From: an uncultured Gammaproteobacteria bacterium
Lineage (GTDB): Bacteria > Patescibacteriota > Microgenomatia > Levybacterales > UBA12049
Reading direction: 5' to 3'
NCBI GenBank assembly: GCA_964508395.1
Contig: CAZDTO010000001.1
Location: 1 to 40,334 of the forward strand
DNA: 40,334 nucleotides
The notes beneath the pieces were generated by a model. It made no database searches, was not told the DNA's origin, and saw only the letters and a list, made by a program, of their open reading frames with translations. Shown one piece after another: positions 5,984 through 15,748 of this stretch. Position 1 is the first letter of the stretch; every line of letters begins with the position of its first letter. Made by a program: the position numbers and the translations under genes.

Positions 5984-6205
5984 ATGAAAAGCGAAAATGT
6001 AAAAGAAGAAAAAGTGTGGGAAACCCAGGGTTATCTTATTAGAGAGGCTTTAGTAAGAGAAATTATAGATGCTGAAAGGTGGCAAACAGTTGTATCTTGT
6101 TGGCAAGCCCTTCTTAAAGTTAAAATTATGATAAAAGAAGCACAAGAAGAAGATAAAATACTAACCCAATCTCAAATGGCTAATTCAGATGAAAGTAAAG
6201 GATAG
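5984..6205 (+). CDS. hypothetical protein
   Basis: Track ORF. Its start lies in a repeated junction gtaaagaatagagaatgaaaag. Confidence 0.45.
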   Translation: MKSENVKEEKVWETQGYLIREALVREIIDAERWQTVVSCWQALLKVKIMIKEAQEEDKILTQSQMANSDESKG

Positions 6206-6218
6206 AGAATGAAAGGGG

Positions 6219-6416
6219 GTGTTTAAAATTTCAACTTTACAATACGTCCAGCCAACAGACGAGCAAAAGGCAGTAATGCAGACTTTTAGAGATAAGTATG
6301 AGGTTCTTTTCAATGAATTAAAAGAACTTCCGAGCAGTCGTGGTATGTCGCTTGCATTAACAAAACTAGAAGAAAGTGCAATGTGGCTTAATAAAGCATT
6401 AACTAAAAACGATTAG
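6219..6416 (+). CDS. hypothetical protein (start uncertain)
   Basis: Track ORF with GTG start. An ATG at 6209 is separated from this frame by a G5 run. Confidence 0.4.
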   Translation: MFKISTLQYVQPTDEQKAVMQTFRDKYEVLFNELKELPSSRGMSLALTKLEESAMWLNKALTKND

Positions 6417-6491
6417 TCTTTTGCAACCATTTTACCGATGTCGGGAGAATGGTTATAGTAGATTAATTTTAGGATAGGAGGAATAGAAAAT

Positions 6492-6680
6492 ATGGCACAA
6501 ATAATTGAATTGATAATCACAAGTGATAATGAAGGCAATATAGACCTTTACTCAAAAAGTGGAAGTTGGATTGCACATAGCGATTTAAAAACAGAAGGTT
6601 GGTTTATGCCCAATGATTTATTAGAAGGAAAATTGAGAGATATTTTTAAGCCAAAAAAACCTAGAATAAATAATTTATGA
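6492..6680 (+). CDS. hypothetical protein (cassette A)
   Basis: Track ORF. Perfect SD aggagg, with conserved 5' and 3' flanks shared with the next ORF. Confidence 0.5.
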   Translation: MAQIIELIITSDNEGNIDLYSKSGSWIAHSDLKTEGWFMPNDLLEGKLRDIFKPKKPRINNL

Positions 6681-6708
6681 ATATTCCATTTAAGGAGGAA
6701 TAGAAAAT

Positions 6709-6996
6709 ATGACTACTAAAACCAAGATAAGAACAATACAAAAAGAGAATTGGAAAAAGATAAATTTTTTAATGGATTTAAGGCGAAAACAATTTGAAGA
6801 TTTATACCAAGAGAACTGGTGGAATTATTTAATTGAAGATAAATTATATAAACATTTATGCCAGAAACTCGTTGAGATTAAATTAATGGGTAGACCTATG
6901 TTTTTAATTGACAAAAAATTGTCAGAGGAGGATATTAAGAACTTAGCAAGTGGATTTATAAACGTAGCGAATTTTATTAAAAATATAGATTTATGA
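6709..6996 (+). CDS. hypothetical protein (cassette B)
   Basis: Track ORF. Same 19-nt 5' flank and 17-nt 3' flank as cassette A. Confidence 0.5.
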   Translation: MTTKTKIRTIQKENWKKINFLMDLRRKQFEDLYQENWWNYLIEDKLYKHLCQKLVEIKLMGRPMFLIDKKLSEEDIKNLASGFINVANFIKNIDL

Positions 6997-8786: not shown

Positions 8787-9143
8787 ATGGCTTTAATTCC
8801 GTCTCCAGGATTCATGTTACTTGAAAAAGTTCCCGTTCCTCACACCAGTAAGCTGGCTCGTTCCAACGAGGATACCGCAGACTCCAACTACGGCAAGGTT
8901 TTAGATTGGGGTCTGCCTTTACTGCAAGAGGGCGGAGTTGTCCTACAGATACCCAGATTTTCCATAGAGACTAATGAGGAAGGGTTGGGAGGTAAGGAAA
9001 GAAAGCTCAAGAAGGGGGACATAGTAGTTTTCGAGAAGAGAACGGAACGTAAAATGAATGATGATTATAGCTCGGGGGCAGATATAATTCAGGTTCGATT
9101 TGATTCACTGCTCGCTTTATTTATAGAGGAGGTAAGAGAATAA
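8787..9143 (+). CDS. groES: GroES-like co-chaperonin (Cpn10 family, divergent)
   Basis: LIPSPGFMLLEKV (cf. GroES i-P-l-g-d-r-v-l-v), NYGKVLDWG (cf. G-x-V-v-A-v-G), LKKGDIVVFEK (cf. v-k-v-G-D-x-V-l-f) and a terminal IIQVRFDSLLALF. Lies immediately upstream of the GroEL-like gene and overlaps it by 1 nt. Confidence 0.6.
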   Translation: MALIPSPGFMLLEKVPVPHTSKLARSNEDTADSNYGKVLDWGLPLLQEGGVVLQIPRFSIETNEEGLGGKERKLKKGDIVVFEKRTERKMNDDYSSGADIIQVRFDSLLALFIEEVRE

Positions 9144-10792
9144 TGGCAATAATTCCAAAAAGGGTAGAGTTTTCTACGGAGGCTCGAAACTATATCTTAA
9201 AAGGAGCTGGAATTATGGCTCGTGCAGTTGGAACTACCTTGGGGCCTAAAGGCAGGAATGTCTTACTATCCTCAAAATATGGTGGGATTATTGAGGTGCA
9301 TGACGGGGTGACTGTAAGTAACGAAACCAAGCTGGACGATCCTCGTGAAGACGCAGGAGCTACAGCTATACGAGACGCAGCCCGAAAGACTAATGATGCC
9401 TCCGGGGATGGCACTACCACCGCCACAGTTTTAGCTTACGAGATTTTACGGGAGGGGAACGCTTACATAATTGCAGGTAAGAACCCCATGTTGATGCAGA
9501 AAGGTATTGATACTGCGGCTAAGCAGGCGGTCGAACTCCTAAAAGAAATGGCAGAACCTATTAAAGAATCTTTAGAGAAGATGATCCAGGTGGCTACAGT
9601 CTCGGCAGCTGATGAGGAGATAGGAAAAGTTATAGCTGAGGCTCTTAAAAAAGTAGGCAAATACGGAGTGGTGACGGTAGACAAGGGTAACGAATTGGGC
9701 TATCATACCGAGTTTAAGGACGGTATGGAGTGGGATAAAGGCTGGATACATCCTGGTTTTGTTTTAAGGGTGCTTGACGGTAAGCCTAACGTGAGGTTAG
9801 AAGCTAAGGTTGAGGAACCCTTTGTTTTGGTGACCGATCACACGATCACTTCGCGATTAGAGATACTACCCTTTTTGGAGAGGTTTGTGGAGGCGGGACA
9901 CAAAAACTTGCTTATTATCTGTGACGGAGTAGAGAGAGAAGCAATGGTTATTTTAGGAGCGCAGTTTGAACGGGGAGTAATTAATGTCTTGCCTGTTCCC
10001 GCCCCCTCATTTGGTGAGCATAAAAGAGATGGTCTGGAAGACATTGCTATTTTAACGGGCGGAGTGTTTGTCTCTAAAGAGATGGGAATGAACATCAAGG
10101 ACATTAAGCTAGACGTTGAGCCGCAGATATTAGGTAGGGCTGATTCGGTTGTTGCCACCCAAACTTCAACAGTCCTTATAGGAGGCAGGGGTGATCCGGA
10201 GAAAGTCAAGGCCAGGGCAAAACAAATCGAAGAACAATTAAAGGATGCGGATCATGAGTTGAAGAAAGAGAAGTACATCGAAAGGCTTGCCAAGCTGACT
10301 TCGGGAGTAGCGGTAGTTAAGGTCGGGACATCTGGGGATGCGGAAAACAGAGAAAAGACCGAGAGGGTTAAGGATGCCATAGGTGCTACCAAGGCTGCGG
10401 TGGAGGAAGGGATTGTACCTGGAGGCGGAATAGCCTTGCTAGAAATAGCTCAAAAGATAAACACCAATTTGGGTTCTGAGGAGGAAAATCTAGGGGCAGA
10501 AATTTTAAAGAAAGCTCTATTAAAACCAATTAAACTATTAGTAGAAAATGCCGGGGGCAGTCCTGATGTAGTTATTAACGAGATTCTTAAAAAGGAAGCG
10601 GGAACAGGCTATAATGTGGTTACAGGAAAGTATGTTGACATGAAGAAGGCGGGAATTGTGGATCCACTCAAAGTTACTATCTCCGCAGTACAAAATGCGG
10701 CAAGTGTGGGGGGGATGTTATTGACTGTAGAGGCAACCATAACTGATATGCCTGATCCCGAAAGAGAGAAAAAAGAACAGCAAGGAGAATAA
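9143..10792 (+). CDS. groEL: GroEL-like chaperonin (Cpn60 family)
   Basis: 549 aa. Hallmark blocks TLGPKGRNVLL, DGVTV, GDGTTTATVLA, AVVKVG, EEGIVPGGG, GIVDPLKV. Lacks the C-terminal GGM repeat tail. Confidence 0.9.
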   Translation: MAIIPKRVEFSTEARNYILKGAGIMARAVGTTLGPKGRNVLLSSKYGGIIEVHDGVTVSNETKLDDPREDAGATAIRDAARKTNDASGDGTTTATVLAYEILREGNAYIIAGKNPMLMQKGIDTAAKQAVELLKEMAEPIKESLEKMIQVATVSAADEEIGKVIAEALKKVGKYGVVTVDKGNELGYHTEFKDGMEWDKGWIHPGFVLRVLDGKPNVRLEAKVEEPFVLVTDHTITSRLEILPFLERFVEAGHKNLLIICDGVEREAMVILGAQFERGVINVLPVPAPSFGEHKRDGLEDIAILTGGVFVSKEMGMNIKDIKLDVEPQILGRADSVVATQTSTVLIGGRGDPEKVKARAKQIEEQLKDADHELKKEKYIERLAKLTSGVAVVKVGTSGDAENREKTERVKDAIGATKAAVEEGIVPGGGIALLEIAQKINTNLGSEEENLGAEILKKALLKPIKLLVENAGGSPDVVINEILKKEAGTGYNVVTGKYVDMKKAGIVDPLKVTISAVQNAASVGGMLLTVEATITDMPDPEREKKEQQGE

Positions 10793-12005: not shown

Positions 12006-12442
12006 CTGAACAAAAAACCGATATTAAACAACTTCAAGTAATCTTTGGGGAGGATTTAGACTTATTGTTATTTTATCTTGCTTGGATTAAAAATGGACTT
12101 AATGCCACTAGAGCTTATAAAGAATTGCACCCAAACGTAACAAATGGAAGTGCGGAGGTTTTGGGTTCAAGGGCGTTAGGAAAAGTTAGTAAAGAGTTAA
12201 TTATGCAAGCCTATGGGTTGGATCAACAAATATACTTCGACCAATTAAAAGAAGGAATTGATGCTACTAAGTGGAATGATTTTACAGGCGAGAGGGAAGC
12301 AGACCATAAGACAAGACGGGAATACCACAAGACGCTTGGAAAATTATTAGGAATAGAAAGAGATGATGAAACCCCACCAATTCAAGTGAATGTAGGAGTA
12401 TTTAACAATGCAACTATGGCAAAAAGATATTCAATAAAATGA
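12002..12442 (+). CDS. terS: terminase small subunit
   Basis: LFYLAWIKNGLNATRAYKELHPNVTNGSAEVLGSRALGK matches the Terminase_2-type HTH pattern (N-A-T-x-A-y...a...as.ll). Lies directly upstream of TerL. Confidence 0.7.
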   Translation: MTEQKTDIKQLQVIFGEDLDLLLFYLAWIKNGLNATRAYKELHPNVTNGSAEVLGSRALGKVSKELIMQAYGLDQQIYFDQLKEGIDATKWNDFTGEREADHKTRREYHKTLGKLLGIERDDETPPIQVNVGVFNNATMAKRYSIK

Positions 12443-13359
12443 GAGCTTTTGGAGAAAACATCAATTATCAATCGTTTATCGAGGATAACTTCCTTATCAA
12501 AAACAAGGATGGAATAGTTGTACCATTCCTTTTTGACATCTTCCAGGAGGGACAGATCAGATCAGTACAGGACTACTACATGGTTGACCTATACCGACAC
12601 TATGGCGATGAGCTTGAGGGCGTGAGGGATATTGTCCTCAAGGGACGCAAAGAGGGGTTTAGCGCAATGATACTGGGTATGTTTGCTACCGACTTCTTAA
12701 TGTCGGAACACCCGATCGGCTGCGTATCTATTGCGGATACAAAAGAGGAAACTCAGAGACTATTGAGCAGGGCTAAGTTTTTTATAGAGTCGGCAGCAAT
12801 AAAAGAAAATAGTAAGCTAACGGACATTTGCGATATAGTCAGTAAAAACCAGTTGCGCAATAAGTGGAACGGGGCGGAGTTTTGGATTGGTACAGCAGGG
12901 AGTAAGGTTGCATTGCGTACCGAAACAGTTCAGGACTTGCATTTTTCAGAAGCAGCCTACTTTGCCGATACGGATATCATAACTGCCACAGAGACGATTG
13001 AAGGGGCGTTGCAGATGGTTCCGCAAGGCAAGGGGAAGGTGTTTATCGAGTCAACTGCTAACGGATATGGCAACTATTATCAGGACTTGTGGGATAAGGC
13101 CAGTTTAGGCGAGAGTACCTTTAGACCAGTATTCTATGGAGCTGACCAGTTCTACTCAAAAGAATGGCTGGCTATCAAAGAGATAGACTTTACGACCAGA
13201 GAGATGTTCTGGCAGGAATATCCTAATAGCCCGGGGCAGGCTTTTATTTCCAGCGGCAGTAAGTTTTTTGATACAGAAGCCATACTGTGGTTGCAAAAAG
13301 AGGTTGTTAGAAAGCCTCTGATTGAGGGCAATCTGAACATATACGGAGAGATAGTTTAA
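12439..13359 (+). CDS. terL: terminase large subunit, N-terminal ATPase half only
   Basis: VLKGRKEGFS (Walker A-like), VQDLHFSEAAYF (Walker B/catalytic Glu region), IESTANG (coupling motif), FWQEYPNSPGQAF. Stops at TAA 13357-13359 with no nuclease domain. Confidence 0.8.
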   Translation: MRAFGENINYQSFIEDNFLIKNKDGIVVPFLFDIFQEGQIRSVQDYYMVDLYRHYGDELEGVRDIVLKGRKEGFSAMILGMFATDFLMSEHPIGCVSIADTKEETQRLLSRAKFFIESAAIKENSKLTDICDIVSKNQLRNKWNGAEFWIGTAGSKVALRTETVQDLHFSEAAYFADTDIITATETIEGALQMVPQGKGKVFIESTANGYGNYYQDLWDKASLGESTFRPVFYGADQFYSKEWLAIKEIDFTTREMFWQEYPNSPGQAFISSGSKFFDTEAILWLQKEVVRKPLIEGNLNIYGEIV

Positions 13360-13643
13360 TGAAGTATTTAATAGTAGCTAAATTAAAGAAACAAAAACAG
13401 CAAGGGGGAAAATACTTTTTTCTATCTGATAAAGATTACGAGAGGTATATTGATGAAATGTCAGAATTTAACCCGAAACTTACAGGTAGTTTAGTTAAAG
13501 GCAGTTCAGCGGTGTTAAGTGAAGATGGAGTATTCCTGACCCCTGCTCAACAAGGAATCCCACTCTTATTTTATTGTGGTTTGCCTGTTTTTAGGAAGAG
13601 GTATAAAAAGTTAGTTAAAAGTATTTATGGGGAGATTGTATGA
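13359..13643 (+). CDS. hypothetical protein whose C-terminal tail copies the TerL-N tail
   Basis: Track ORF. Ends ...FRKRYKKLVKSIYGEIV, compared with the TerL-N end ...VRKPLIEGNLNIYGEIV. Confidence 0.5.
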   Translation: MKYLIVAKLKKQKQQGGKYFFLSDKDYERYIDEMSEFNPKLTGSLVKGSSAVLSEDGVFLTPAQQGIPLLFYCGLPVFRKRYKKLVKSIYGEIV

Positions 13644-13891
13644 AAAGATGGTTTGATGATTGGAAGATAGAAACAGAAAATGAACGAAAAAACTATGTTC
13701 GCTTAATACTGCGGTTACCTCATACAAAGTCAAAGCAGAAATTTTTGATGTTAACAGTTAAAAGGAATGGTGGATTACATTGGTTATTTAGCCACTTTGA
13801 ATTAGCTTTAATGAATTTATCAGAGTCTGTAGAAATAACTTTACCAGAAGACACAAAGGTTGTCAAAACAATATATAAAGAATTAAAATGA
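13640..13891 (+). CDS. hypothetical protein
   Basis: Track ORF, ATGA overlaps at both ends. Confidence 0.45.
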   Translation: MKRWFDDWKIETENERKNYVRLILRLPHTKSKQKFLMLTVKRNGGLHWLFSHFELALMNLSESVEITLPEDTKVVKTIYKELK

Positions 13892-14670
13892 ATCCTGCCG
13901 AAGTAATCAGTGAAGTTCTACAATCAATAGCTGAGAAAGCTCAAGTAGGCGTTAATTTATTGGAACTTGAAAAGAGAGCAGAGACTACTATACAAATAAG
14001 AGGAGCCGTTTCGGCAAACAAAAACTATCAACCTCAATGGGCGAAGACACCCTTCCCTTCTGTGGTGTGTCTGGGAGTCAACGATCAAGTAGGACACAAC
14101 ATACCCAGGGATTATGTCTTACAAGATGGTGATCTCTTAAAGATAGACTGCGGTATCACAATCAATGGTCAGGCAGGAGACGCAGGACTCACCATTCCTA
14201 TAGGCAAGATTAGCGATAGGGATGAGAGACTGCTAAGGTATACCAAGAGAGCTTTGTACCGAGGTATCCAAGCTATTCAAGTAGGCGGCAAGGTTAGCGA
14301 GGTAGGCAAAGTTATTGAACGCTATATAATGCAGATGGGATTGGCTGTTGTCAGACAGATGAACGGTCATGGTATAGGAGCGCAGATGCACATGGAGCCG
14401 GCCATCCCGCACTTTATCGTACCGCAAAAGAGAGTCGGGAAGAAGTACGAGTATACCGAGGTTGACTTGGGTACTTTCCGCGAGGGACAGATAGTATGCA
14501 TTGAACCTCATGTTACCTATCATAGCGATGTGGTCAAGGAGGACGATTGGGGTTTGAAAACTAGAGATGGGCGCAAGTCAGCAATGTTTGAACATATGGT
14601 AGAGATTAGTTCATCGGGAGTAAGAATTTTAACAACGCATATTGCAGAGGAGGTGAATTATGGAGAATAA
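13888..14670 (+). CDS. map: methionine aminopeptidase, type I-like
   Basis: Pita-bread fold motifs with all expected metal ligands visible: VGHNIP, KIDCG (Asp), GDAGLT (Asp), GHGIG (His), CIEP (Glu), FEHMV (Glu). Confidence 0.8.
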   Translation: MNPAEVISEVLQSIAEKAQVGVNLLELEKRAETTIQIRGAVSANKNYQPQWAKTPFPSVVCLGVNDQVGHNIPRDYVLQDGDLLKIDCGITINGQAGDAGLTIPIGKISDRDERLLRYTKRALYRGIQAIQVGGKVSEVGKVIERYIMQMGLAVVRQMNGHGIGAQMHMEPAIPHFIVPQKRVGKKYEYTEVDLGTFREGQIVCIEPHVTYHSDVVKEDDWGLKTRDGRKSAMFEHMVEISSSGVRILTTHIAEEVNYGE

Positions 14671-14920
14671 AAATATATTTGTCGCCGGTATCCCCTGGGC
14701 TTTTGATGACCTAAAGTTAAGTGAACTCTTTGCGAAACACGGAGCGGTAGTCTCGGCTAAAGTTATAACTGACAGAGATACGGGGAGATCAAAAGGCTAT
14801 GGTTTTGTTGAGATGTCAACATCAGAGGAAGCCCAAAGCGCAATCAAAAACCTTGACGGTACTGATCTTAATGGGCGAAAATTGGTAGTCAATGCCGCAA
14901 AACCAAGAAGGGAGGTATAA
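14660..14920 (+). CDS. RRM-type RNA-binding protein
   Basis: 86 aa. RNP2-like IFVAGI and a perfect RNP1 KGYGFVEM (14792-14815). Overall it resembles small bacterial RRM (Rbp) proteins. Confidence 0.8.
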   Translation: MENKNIFVAGIPWAFDDLKLSELFAKHGAVVSAKVITDRDTGRSKGYGFVEMSTSEEAQSAIKNLDGTDLNGRKLVVNAAKPRREV

Positions 14921-15141
14921 TGAGCAGTTGTGTCGTTTGTGAAAAACCTTTGGCGAAGTATCATTGCTTGCCCGATGTATATTACTGTGTCAGTCCAAGA
15001 TGTACGAACTTGGGGTTGTTAACAGTGATTGTTTTAACGCCTCAAGCGACTAAAACGGAGGTAAAAGATGATAAAGTTGTACCGCAATCTGGAAGCGTTG
15101 GAGCCGATAGTCCTGTCGGGGGATCCGGGGGAAGGAATTAG
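14920..15141 (+). CDS. hypothetical zinc-ribbon protein
   Basis: Track ORF. CVVCEKP...CVSPRC. The last 74 nt overlap TerL-C in another frame, so the C-terminus is uncertain. Confidence 0.35.
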   Translation: MSSCVVCEKPLAKYHCLPDVYYCVSPRCTNLGLLTVIVLTPQATKTEVKDDKVVPQSGSVGADSPVGGSGGRN

Positions 15142-15748
15142 TTTTGCCGCAGGAGTTTGTATAAGCAAGAAGTACCATGATGTACCGCTTGTTTATCATG
15201 CAAGGATTGAATCTCCCGCTTTTGGGAACGAGCTCTACAAAATGGGGCTGTTTGTTAAGAAAAAAACAGGGGACTTTCCTTTATTGGCTGTAGAACGAAA
15301 CATCGGTGCAGCTACAATAGCCAAACTCATTGAGCTGGAGTACCCGTACGGCAAGCTATACAGGCAGAAAACCTTTGACAGAATACTGCGTCAGGAAGAA
15401 GACAGGATAGGATGGGTTACAACATCTACCAACAGAAGAAAGATGCTGGATGATCTGGCTTTGGCTATCCGTAGAAAAGAGTTGAAAGTCTACGATAAAG
15501 ATATTGTAGATGAGATGCTTACCTTTATTATTGCGGAACGCACAGGAGAACCAAGACCTGAGCGTAACCACTTCTCTGATCTGATTATGGCATTGGCAAT
15601 AGCAAATCAAATAGCGGGAGAAAACAGAATAGCGGCGAAGTGGGCGCCGACAATAGAGAAGAAGGAGAAAGATAACTATTTGCCTGAGAAAGCGGAAGGT
15701 TTTATTACCGAAAAATGGCAAGAAAAAAGAGATTGGCGATCAGGTTAG
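15068..15748 (+). CDS. terL: terminase large subunit, C-terminal RNase H-like nuclease half only
   Basis: IVLSGDPGEG (first catalytic Asp strand), AVERNIGAATI, GWVTTSTNRRKMLDDL, HFSDLIMALAIANQ. Own SD GGAGG 15057-15061 and an in-frame TAA 15062-15064 just upstream. Confidence 0.75.
   Translation: MIKLYRNLEALEPIVLSGDPGEGISFAAGVCISKKYHDVPLVYHARIESPAFGNELYKMGLFVKKKTGDFPLLAVERNIGAATIAKLIELEYPYGKLYRQKTFDRILRQEEDRIGWVTTSTNRRKMLDDLALAIRRKELKVYDKDIVDEMLTFIIAERTGEPRPERNHFSDLIMALAIANQIAGENRIAAKWAPTIEKKEKDNYLPEKAEGFITEKWQEKRDWRSG

Follow-up and report, generated by a model that had tools for sequence, protein, structure and literature searches.

The IYGEIV ending of ORF94, a 94-aa open reading frame adjacent to the first half of a split terminase gene, is most probably a leftover of recombination between phages. 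In the window (the whole 40,334-nt stretch of DNA that was analysed) IYGEIV* closes both the ATPase half of the terminase large subunit (TerL-N, 12439-13359) and ORF94 (13359-13643), and the codons of the two hexapeptides differ in five of six cases, always at the third position. This combination of identical amino acids and synonymous differences is explained if the two copies are orthologous TerL-N alleles of two lineages. Each allele would have been selected as TerL-N tail and ribosome-binding site before the joining, and selection acting on the ORF94 tail would be unnecessary. A pattern resembling strong selection on a peptide can arise without selection on that copy when recombination joins orthologous alleles of two lineages, and awareness of this guards against a mistaken functional assignment for ORF94. 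The relevant features, all on the forward (+) strand, are the following:

12439..13359, +, TerL-N, ATPase half of the split terminase large subunit, 306 aa (tblastn to annotated phage TerLs)
13339..13359, +, native TerL-N tail IYGEIV*, with in-frame Shine-Dalgarno sequence GGAGAG at 13345-13350; the stop overlaps the ORF94 start (TAATG)
13359..13598, +, ORF94 body, residues 1-80, cassette gene in a low-GC island (43% identity to P0096 over residues 2-80)
13599..13622, +, first part of the ORF94 extension (RYKKLVKS), read-through of a flank that is non-coding in L025
13620..13643, +, second copy of the TerL-N 3′ end, exact over 13623-13643 (ATTTATGGGGAGATTGTATGA), encoding IYGEIV* in the ORF94 frame
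13640..13891, +, ORF83, second cassette gene (P0098 is 72% identical)
13888..14670, +, M24 metallopeptidase (methionine-aminopeptidase-like), resident of the gap (Pfam PF00557, E=8e-34)
14660..14920, +, RRM_1 RNA-binding protein, 86 aa, variable occupant of the gap (Pfam PF00076, E=2e-21)
14920..15141, +, ORF73, small Cys-rich protein just upstream of TerL-C, whose start it overlaps by 74 nt
15068..15748, +, TerL-C, nuclease half, 226 aa, starting MIKLYRNLE (PHROG 24361 'terminase', E=3e-8)

The split terminase and its tail motif

Annotated terminase large subunits were found in 12 of the 13 phage records matching TerL-N (tblastn, E down to 3e-14). Residues 9-299 of TerL-N align to residues 17-313 of P0073, an unsplit TerL of 532 aa (E=4e-42), and residues 2-182 of TerL-C align to P0073 residues 329-502 (E=1e-17). 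The nuclease-side region of P0073 aligns to the nuclease domains of T4 and RB49 gp17 (3ezk, 3cpe, 3c6a). The two halves are thus co-linear with P0073, with a break between P0073 residues 313 (TerL-N 299) and 329 (TerL-C 2), where a 15-residue stretch of P0073 is covered by only eight residues of the window. Pfam searches revealed no intein domain at the break. The truncated form of TerL-N (257-308 aa) is common to about 70 protein clusters. In a large clade of ~40-kb groundwater phages TerL is permanently split at a β-meander that lies between its ATPase domain and its nuclease domain. This is an ancient split, which in L035 exists with nothing separating the halves. A literature search found nothing specific on split terminase genes.

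The tail motif G.L..[YFW]GE[ILMV]x is kept throughout the family of split TerL-N proteins. In the AF2 model of the unsplit P0073, which has strands at 309-314, 320-323, 329-331 and then 341-346 (YVIGGD), the motif maps to the strands directly before the split point. In alignments with unsplit TerLs, the start of TerL-C pairs with LRIYKEPE, which lies downstream of the part corresponding to the TerL-N tail. The original prediction took MIKLYRNLE for a third version of the repeated strand; IKLYRNLE is instead the next β-strand of the ancestral unsplit TerL, a neighbour of the tail and no copy of it.

Core genes of phages can be split by an inserted free-standing gene and remain functional as two polypeptides ('genes in pieces'), and Aeh1 NrdA is reportedly split in this way by the homing endonuclease gene mobE. 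The terminase of the window resembles these cases in that an essential enzyme is encoded by two ORFs parted by unrelated genes, with the break at a domain boundary; the gap of one relative, L004, contains an HNH ORF. In contrast to them, none of the five ORFs in the gap of the window has an endonuclease domain (HNH, GIY-YIG or LAGLIDADG), the split is ancient with an empty gap in L035, and the genes resident in the gap encode an M24 peptidase and a small Cys-rich protein.

The second copy of the TerL-N 3′ end

The C-terminus of TerL-N reads ...VRKPLIEGNLNIYGEIV* (codons ata tac gga gag ata gtt taa at 13339-13359) and that of ORF94 reads ...FRKRYKKLVKSIYGEIV* (codons att tat ggg gag att gta tga at 13623-13643), in agreement with the coordinates and codons from which the original prediction started. 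Given the amino acid composition of the window, a shared C-terminal hexapeptide is expected in ~9e-5 gene pairs, and no further gene pair in the window has more than three terminal residues in common. The core 18-mer of the ORF94 tail copy occurs nowhere else in the window with up to four mismatches. The arrangement recurs in two other sequencing runs (L037 and L038), with 0 mismatches over 6285 and 1019 nt, respectively. The strain of the window is present in the runs SRR12113384 and SRR12113424.

The last 15-35 nt of TerL-N have two roles: they encode the last β-strand, and they supply the Shine-Dalgarno sequence (GGGGAG), the spacer and the overlapping start (ATGA) of the next gene. In the second copy GGGGAG (13629-13634) is followed by a 5-nt spacer and the ATG of ORF83 (13640-13642), which overlaps the stop. 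Dual coding of this kind could by itself have given the same peptide twice. The G-E of the tail is partly forced by the in-frame Shine-Dalgarno sequence (GGAGAG in TerL-N, GGGGAG in ORF94; in general GGRGAG), 10 of 60 genes in the window have GE within their last six residues where ~1.5 would be expected, and in both tails the distance to the following ATG is 5-8 nt. The constraint explains at most the G-E, however, and not the I-Y or the I-V, and it has not produced a second such pair of genes in the window. We disfavour convergence as barely credible, since the DNA match of the ORF94 tail to the TerL-N ends of relatives points to common descent.

The DNA of the ORF94 tail, ATTTATGGGGAGATTGTATGA (13623-13643), is identical to the TerL-N 3′ end of L007/8 in 21 of 21 nt, a match that takes in the TGA stop and, overlapping it, the ATG of the following gene, and the last 18 nt of the tail are identical to the TerL-N ends of L005 and L006 (18/18). 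With the TerL-N tail of its own genome it shares ~15/21 nt. A DNA profile made from the TerL-N 3′ ends of relatives matched 13620-13643 with E=0.0028 (nhmmer). The TerL-N genes of the relatives are 73-81% identical to that of the window at the DNA level, and codons for the same amino acid are identical in 44-55% of cases; L005, L006 and L007 agree over the last 18 nt although codon identity elsewhere is ~50%. Among relatives the DNA of this 18-21-nt segment is conserved to an unusual degree, probably owing to its role as a ribosome-binding site, and therefore its identity neither dates the event nor proves that it was recent.

An exact scan with the 18-mer TATGGGGAGATTGTATGA gave one match in viral contigs and 15 in metagenome contigs, and none of these contigs encodes a TerL-N relative (tblastn). 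The number of matches is about that expected by chance for collections of that size. Many of the matches are merely a ribosome-binding site with a start codon. Searches of IMG/VR with TerL-N or ORF94 peptides did not find close relatives, and no DNA match was found among GenBank phages.

In the original prediction the repeat was attributed to an ancient duplication, with both tails then kept by purifying selection. If the TerL-N end had been duplicated in tandem long ago in this lineage, in the style of a target-site duplication and with later recoding of one copy, this would account for the two direct, imperfect copies that flank ORF94, and possibly for a co-linear block of 12 nt, 45 nt upstream of the stop (GTTTTTAGGAAG in ORF94, GTTGTTAGGAAG in TerL-N of L006; same offset, 11/12 identical). 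The copy at ORF94 nevertheless matches other lineages (21/21 with L007) better than the tail of its own genome (15/21). Moreover, the homologue of ORF83 has the same junction, at a true TerL-N end. The signs of a transposon or IS target-site duplication are lacking: the two copies in the window share only those ~15 nt, they have no convincing terminal inverted repeats, and neither ORF94 nor ORF83 contains a transposase domain. Tandem duplication is therefore a very improbable origin of the ending.

The 12-nt block encodes V-x-R-K, and its equal offset could mean that the ancestral duplication was longer, ~57 nt. We rejected such a 57-nt duplication. The residues belong to the conserved C-terminus of ORF94 itself, which reads CGLPVFRK where the homologous protein P0096 ends with CGFPVYKN*; the same comparison removes the R-K 'at the same offset' from the repeat, of which it had been regarded as a part. 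The match of the block is treated as coincidence or microhomology. Derivation of the whole of ORF94 as a diverged duplicate of the TerL-N C-terminus was rejected, as the similarity is confined to the last 60 nt; upstream of these, ORF94 and TerL-N are 26.7% identical (background, 27.3%).

P0096, encoded at locus L025, is the sole homologue of ORF94 among 1.8 billion representative proteins. It is 43% identical to ORF94 and occupies the same slot, between TerL-N and M24. P0096 stops at the position of ORF94 residue 80 and lacks IYGEIV. The tblastn match of ORF94 continues past the stop codon of L025 to residue 91, and nucleotides 13599-13631 of the window match the post-stop spacer of L025 (611-643) in 19 of 33 nt at a co-linear offset (p ~0.001-0.007). 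The base composition sets the two cassette genes apart: GC is 0.31-0.38 across the ORF94/ORF83 island versus 0.44-0.48 in the flanking TerL-N and M24 genes. A weak Pfam match of ORF94 to FBPase_C (E=0.0026; 18 bits, cut-off 27) was regarded as spurious.

A second explanation contained in the original prediction was a shared C-terminal docking peptide. By β-strand complementation the tail strand of ORF94 would bind TerL-C, so that ORF94 could act on the split terminase as competitor, regulator or adaptor, and purifying selection would maintain IYGEIV. The TerL-N tail is conserved in the split family, and in the model of the unsplit relative it adjoins the strand that begins TerL-C, so the tail strand plausibly helps to join the two halves; in ORF94 the identical hexapeptide lies at the very C-terminus. 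We nevertheless consider docking very improbable. Conservation of IYGEIV among relatives of ORF94, whose absence the original prediction had named as refuting it, was not found, the sole homologue ending at residue 80, and the tail is thus not kept in the ORF94 family independently of its context; because that homologue is only one, and 43% identical, its lack of a tail amounts to a single comparison. The G.L.. part of the conserved motif is missing from ORF94, which has LVKS where TerL-N has GNLN. The extra copies in relatives (L026 and, less clearly, L005 and L025) are not translated as the tail of the upstream ORF. The copy also runs through the stop codon into the start of the following gene, neither of which a selected peptide would need, and the tailed form of ORF94 occurs in one strain only.

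The junctions of the ORF83 homologue are further evidence for the recombination reading. In L026-28, P0098 begins at the ATGA that overlaps the true TerL-N stop; the TerL-N/P0098 junction is ...GGGGAGGTTGTATGAAAAGATGGTTTGATGATTGG, and the corresponding junction of the window is ...GGGGAGATTGTATGAAAAGATGGTTTGATGATTGG. The TerL-N end is also found a second time in L026-28, with an exact match over 33 nt and a profile match over 35 nt (E=7.6e-8); this copy lies after P0098, is out of frame with it and untranslated, and overlaps the start of the next cassette gene. The tail copy in the window is best read as the 5′ boundary of the ORF83 cassette, comprising its Shine-Dalgarno sequence GGGGAG and its start, because of the 21/21-nt match, the tailless P0096, the L026-28 junction and the untranslated copy in L026.

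We infer that two related phages recombined, one with TerL-N followed by an ORF94-type gene (L025-like) and the other with TerL-N followed by an ORF83-type gene (L026-28-like). The ORF83 gene would have been joined behind ORF94, bringing with it the last 21-24 nt of the donor's TerL-N, and the copy would have persisted as the translation-initiation region of ORF83. ORF94, which has no stop where its homologue stops, simply reads on through eight codons of former flank into the boundary of the ORF83 cassette, in frame with the fragment, and therefore has a 14-residue extension ending IYGEIV*. Against this reading, an in-frame fusion without an intervening stop could have been kept by selection. 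The key junctions in relatives come from contigs of ~600-950 nt; the donor and recipient genomes were not recovered.

Mosaic junctions and morons of tailed phages arise by illegitimate or short-homology recombination at gene boundaries, as in the mosaicism of lambdoid phages. The window shares with them genes inserted between two conserved genes, a deviant base composition, junctions at gene boundaries and fragments of a neighbouring gene left as scars. It differs in that the hotspot lies within a split essential gene and that the upstream inserted ORF runs in frame into the scar, duplicating a conserved structural peptide. The case is an ordinary mosaic junction within an interesting, anciently split terminase gene.

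The variable slot after TerL-N

A comparison of relatives, proposed together with the original prediction, revealed that the presence or absence of cassettes differs among close relatives (L001-L008, L025-28, L036). The TerL-N stop is followed directly by M24 in L001-L004, by a 73-aa ORF in L007/8, by a 103-aa ORF in L036, by other small ORFs in L005 and L006, by the ORF94 homologue in L025 and by the ORF83 homologue in L026-28. The content of the slot varies among relatives whose TerL-N is 79-92% identical. L001, L004 and L025-L028 derive from the H14, H51 and H52 assemblies of the Hainich wells. Serial insertion of cassettes at one hotspot, as originally proposed, is thus supported at the DNA level in a modified form, as a variable slot after the TerL-N stop with extra copies of the TerL-N end before cassettes.

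These observations would also fit an active site of cassette shuffling, where the TerL-N 3′ end with its ribosome-binding site and start serves as the short homology that drives gain, loss and exchange of cassettes. We regard this as a tentative possibility. Tail copies precede ORF83 in the window, a 59-aa ORF in L026-28, the second ORF of L005 and P0096 in L025, that is, they lie at the 5′ boundaries of cassettes in the window and in three distinct relatives, and the variable slot and the identity of the last 18 nt in L005, L006 and L007 agree with such a role. However, two of the four cases, the L005 and L025 copies, fall short of significance when taken singly, and the M24 gene behind a cassette is usually without a recognisable copy. 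The lengths of the copies vary (15, 18, 21-24 and 33-35 nt), and the varied breakpoints favour illegitimate joins over one defined site. No promoter-like or terminator-like site or stem-loop was found at 13339-13359 or 13620-13643, and the gap of the window contains no recombinase or nuclease gene.

Precedent for shuffling exists in the promoter-early stem-loop (PeSL) cassettes of T4-type phages, which bring about the shuffling of modules in hyperplastic regions (Arbiol et al. 2010, PMC2839356; Comeau et al. 2014, PMC4122927) and for which mini-circles were described (PMC2839356). By analogy, shuffling might proceed by recombination between copies and re-integration of small circles, a mechanism that is compatible with the recombination reading and would add to it. 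As in the PeSL system, a short expression signal is repeated 5′ of small, mostly ORFan genes in a variable region between conserved core genes, and related phages vary by insertion, deletion and replacement of genes at the repeats. Unlike PeSLs, which consist of a sigma-70-like promoter and a terminator stem-loop, the copies in the window have neither of these elements, and copy lengths vary; the repeat is a translation-initiation region (Shine-Dalgarno sequence and overlapping start) and at the same time the 3′ coding end of an essential gene.

With the same reserve, the TerL gap may be viewed as a gene-cassette array, in which the final 15-35 nt of TerL-N form a portable linker for recombination and expression, with which related phages capture, stack and swap small genes at a single site. 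In-frame read-through could then at times equip a cassette protein with the docking strand of TerL-N, as in ORF94, where it could be co-opted for binding TerL-C. If the linker reading is true, the system would be a translational counterpart of PeSL, and if cassette exchange is actively mediated by the tail repeat, this would illustrate in compact form the acquisition of genes by phages beside essential genes.

Other genes of the gap

The features that deserve attention are the permanently split TerL, the M24 peptidase and the small Cys-rich protein resident in its gap, and the variable cassette slot after the first half. The end of ORF83, TIYKELK*, was considered as a third, degenerate copy before M24. 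It matches a TerL-N tail in 15 of 24 nt (hand count); the profile misses it and the regions upstream of M24 in other relatives are dissimilar, and we do not claim it as a copy. M24 lies between the TerL halves in L001-4, L007 and L031; on short contigs (L005, L025, L026 and L036) it directly follows TerL-N or the cassettes behind it. The RRM_1 gene is present in L007 and missing from L001-4. ORF73 is conserved, with 37-55% identity (tblastn) in L001-4, L007 and L031.

The repeated end of TerL-N

The terminase region of the window is laid out as follows, TerL-N and TerL-C being the ATPase and nuclease halves of a split terminase large subunit:

12439..13359, + strand: TerL-N, 306 aa, matching annotated phage terminase large subunits
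13359..13643, + strand: ORF94, the next ORF after TerL-N
13640..13891, + strand: ORF83, after ORF94
13888..14670, + strand: M24 metallopeptidase (PF00557, E=8e-34)
14660..14920, + strand: RRM_1 protein
14920..15141, + strand: ORF73, small and Cys-rich
15068..15748, + strand: TerL-C

TerL-N ends with ...NIYGEIV* (ata tac gga gag ata gtt taa) and ORF94 with ...SIYGEIV* (att tat ggg gag att gta tga); re-reading of the sequence confirmed the coordinates and codons originally reported for both tails. From composition, ~9e-5 gene pairs of the window would be expected to have this C-terminal hexapeptide in common, and any other gene pair shares at most three terminal residues. The tail arrangement is identical in contigs of two other sequencing runs, which, together with the low expectation, excludes a chance match or an assembly accident. 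Together, ORF94 and ORF83 make up an island of low GC (0.31-0.38; 0.44-0.48 on either side).

The final 21 nt of ORF94, ATTTATGGGGAGATTGTATGA (13623-13643), are identical to the final 21 nt of TerL-N in the related loci L007/8, and the last 18 nt to those of TerL-N in L005 and L006. The match takes in the TGA stop and the overlapping ATG of the next gene. Over the rest of the gene these relatives' TerL-N is 73-81% identical in DNA to that of the window, with 44-54% identical codons among those specifying the same amino acid; the window's own TerL-N tail matches the relatives' ends in only 14-15 of 21 nt. Before its final 60 nt, ORF94 shows no resemblance to TerL-N (26.7% identity, background 27.3%), and a DNA profile of TerL-N ends picked up 13620-13643 (E=0.0028). 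The core 18-mer of the tail has no second occurrence in the window, even at 4 mismatches, thus this phage does not use it as a general ribosome-binding-site motif. Pure convergence of both tails under ribosome-binding-site constraints, which accounts for G-E alone, is very unlikely.

The GE dipeptide is found in the last six residues of 10 of the 60 predicted genes (~1.5 expected), likely because the Shine-Dalgarno sequence (GGAG) of the next gene lies in frame within the end of the upstream gene. Along the plus strand of the window, neighbouring genes are closely coupled through overlapping stops and starts (ATGA or TAATG).

ORF94, ORF83 and the slot after TerL-N

A word-indexed search for relatives of ORF94 among 5.8 billion proteins came back empty; among 1.8 billion representatives, searched exhaustively with HMMER, there was one, P0096 (86 aa, 43% identity). 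It occupies the same slot after the TerL-N stop on L025, a 907-nt contig of a Hainich groundwater assembly, in the order TerL-N end (...NIYGEIC*), 63-nt spacer, P0096, 32-nt spacer, M24. The end of P0096, ...FYCGFPVYKN*, aligns with ...FYCGLPVFRK(80) of ORF94, which runs 14 residues further (RYKKLVKSIYGEIV). ORF94 codons 81-91 match the non-coding DNA past the P0096 stop in 19 of 33 nt at a co-linear offset (p ~0.001-0.007). The end of P0096 and this flank match argue that the ORF94 extension is a former 3′ flank, now read through, followed by a TerL-N-end fragment. The original prediction had invoked old duplication with purifying selection on both tails; this is contradicted by the lack of IYGEIV in the ORF94 homologue. 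The R-K that had been placed at the same offset in both tails belongs, in the P0096 alignment, to ORF94's own conserved end.

Judged from these comparisons, the IYGEIV* of ORF94 is probably the recombination scar of a TerL-N end from another phage; from the sequence relationships we infer both the recombination event and the reason for the copy's retention. The final 15-35 nt of TerL-N have a dual use: besides encoding the conserved last strand, they provide the next gene with a Shine-Dalgarno sequence (GGGGAG), a spacer of 5 nt and an overlapping start codon. When phages with different slot genes recombine, a gene from directly after TerL-N would carry along the TerL-N end through illegitimate or short-homology joins, as suggested by the differing lengths of the copies, and recombinants keeping the TerL-N piece would keep the translation signal of the carried gene. 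In the window the joint would lie in the 3′ flank of ORF94, where the frame was open by chance, and ORF94 would have gained IYGEIV*. Identical amino acids with synonymous divergence would then reflect two orthologous TerL-N alleles, each selected in its own lineage.

A homologue of ORF83, P0098 (72% identity), is encoded on three short Hainich groundwater contigs (L026-28), where its start and a genuine TerL-N stop (...GNLNSFGEVV*) overlap as ATGA. The TerL-N/P0098 junction reads GGGGAGGTTGTATGAAAAGATGGTTTGATGATTGG, and the corresponding one behind ORF94 in the window GGGGAGATTGTATGAAAAGATGGTTTGATGATTGG; at the sequence level, the former is the donor arrangement predicted if the ORF94 tail is a scar. 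In the same contigs a second TerL-N-end copy follows P0098 (GGTAACTTAAATATGTATGGGGAGATTGTATGA), matching the TerL-N end of L005 exactly over 33 nt (35 nt by profile, E=7.6e-8). This copy is one base off the P0098 frame, so that it ends P0098 with a stop codon and adds no tail to the protein. It also overlaps the beginning of the cassette gene that comes next (59 aa) and precedes M24. Weaker copies, neither significant alone nor translated as a tail, precede the second small ORF of L005 (GGGGAGATTGTATGA) and P0096 in L025 (TATGGAGAAATAATATGA, differing at 2 positions from the TerL-N tail of L004).

ORF83, longer than P0098 by 11 residues, ends with TIYKELK* (13868-13891) immediately ahead of M24, which starts at an ATGA. 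This end resembles IYGEIV* at the same offset, has 15 of 24 nt in common with a TerL-N tail and may be a third, degenerate copy, without statistical support.

The slot after the TerL-N stop varies among relatives.

Table. Genes after the TerL-N stop in relatives (loci; TerL-N identity to the window; genes)
L001-3, L004; 86%, 89%; M24 directly (ATGA overlap)
L007/8; 86%; 73-aa ORF, then M24 and RRM
L005; 92%; small ORFs, then M24
L006; 88%; another small ORF (contig ends there)
L036; 79%; 103-aa ORF, then M24

Mosaic junctions and moron-type insertions with a carried-along boundary fragment are known events in tailed phages, and the window junction is one of these. What is unusual is the boundary fragment itself, which represents the coding end of a gene that is both essential and split, and which became joined in frame to a cassette ORF. 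The closest described system is modular shuffling by PeSL elements, which mediate cassette exchange in T4-type phages (PMC2839356). That the copies themselves actively mediate cassette exchange in a similar way would be compatible with a scar, but the promoter and stem-loop of PeSL are absent at the copies, and such a role is possible though doubtful. IS-like inverted repeats were not found at the copies. Once explained, the ORF94 tail itself is ordinary; the split terminase with its cassette slot is the more interesting by-product.

The split terminase and the start of TerL-C

By sequence comparison the terminase split, which lies at the ATPase/nuclease junction, is old and a permanent trait of a large clade. 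A protein search with TerL-N returned ~70 clusters (257-308 aa, 42-92% identity), all ending at the same place, and unsplit TerLs of ~530 aa only at ≤35% identity. The tail motif G.L..[YFW]GE[ILMV]x is kept across the split family, even in L029, where the next gene is on the opposite strand, which argues that in its native place the TerL-N tail is selected at the protein level.

TerL-N residues 9-299 align with residues 17-313 of P0073, an unsplit 532-aa homologue, and TerL-C residues 2-182 with P0073 329-502, a segment matching the nuclease domains of T4 and RB49 gp17. The AlphaFold2 model of P0073 (pLDDT ~87-93 over residues 300-340) has a helix at 293-303, strands at 309-314, 320-323 and 329-331, then a strand at 341-346 (YVIGGD), which by alignment to T4 gp17 presumably holds the first nuclease acidic residue. 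The alignments and modelled strands place the split within a small β-meander, after its second strand and before its third. The TerL-C start, previously regarded as a third tail copy, is the next strand: IKLYRNLE aligns with LRIYKEPE of P0073. Strand pairing plausibly holds the halves together. The TerL-N tail probably adjoins the first strand of TerL-C, a point in favour of the ORF94 tail acting as a docking peptide for TerL-C; no comparative support for such docking remains, and we consider it improbable.

In the distant L035 (47% identity) the TerL halves adjoin with a 17-nt overlap and nothing between, and in L031 (59% identity) the order is TerL-N, M24, ORF73-like gene, TerL-C, thus the split probably preceded the insertions. 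At L035 5850-5880 TerL-N ends ...TTT ATT TGA TAG, and TerL-C, in the +1 frame, has its own ATG with GGGAGA upstream; the two halves may arise there by independent initiation or through a +1 frameshift at ATT-TGA.

In a relative whose TerL-N is 62% identical (L029 5001-10903, L030), the genes after TerL-N are opposite-strand or replication genes (HTH, Prim-Pol). TerL-C was not found there by tblastn in the ~5 kb flank on either side; it may lie at a distance from TerL-N, or this genome may have a different layout. A limited literature search found no paper on this split terminase clade.

The M24 peptidase and the small Cys-rich ORF reside in the gap between the halves across the clade (59-100% identity). 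ORF73 (14920-15141) is conserved and shares its last 74 nt with the beginning of TerL-C, which is read in another frame; such an overlap recurs in relatives (e.g. L001, 7903-8073 versus 8042). In a single relative, L004, the gap contains an HNH-domain ORF (6012-6758, 248 aa) right before TerL-C, a hint that the split is at times occupied by homing-type nucleases or arose with their help.

Several of the relatives were assembled from metagenomes of groundwater: the Hainich wells and, in the case of L029, a groundwater metagenome. The window phage encodes a Cpn60 (GroEL-like) chaperonin (9143-10792); added genes of relatives (L001 1-2390; L007 87-1696) encode Cpn10 and an RNA polymerase alpha C-terminal-domain protein, and L007 also has Tet_JBP and TAGT domains.
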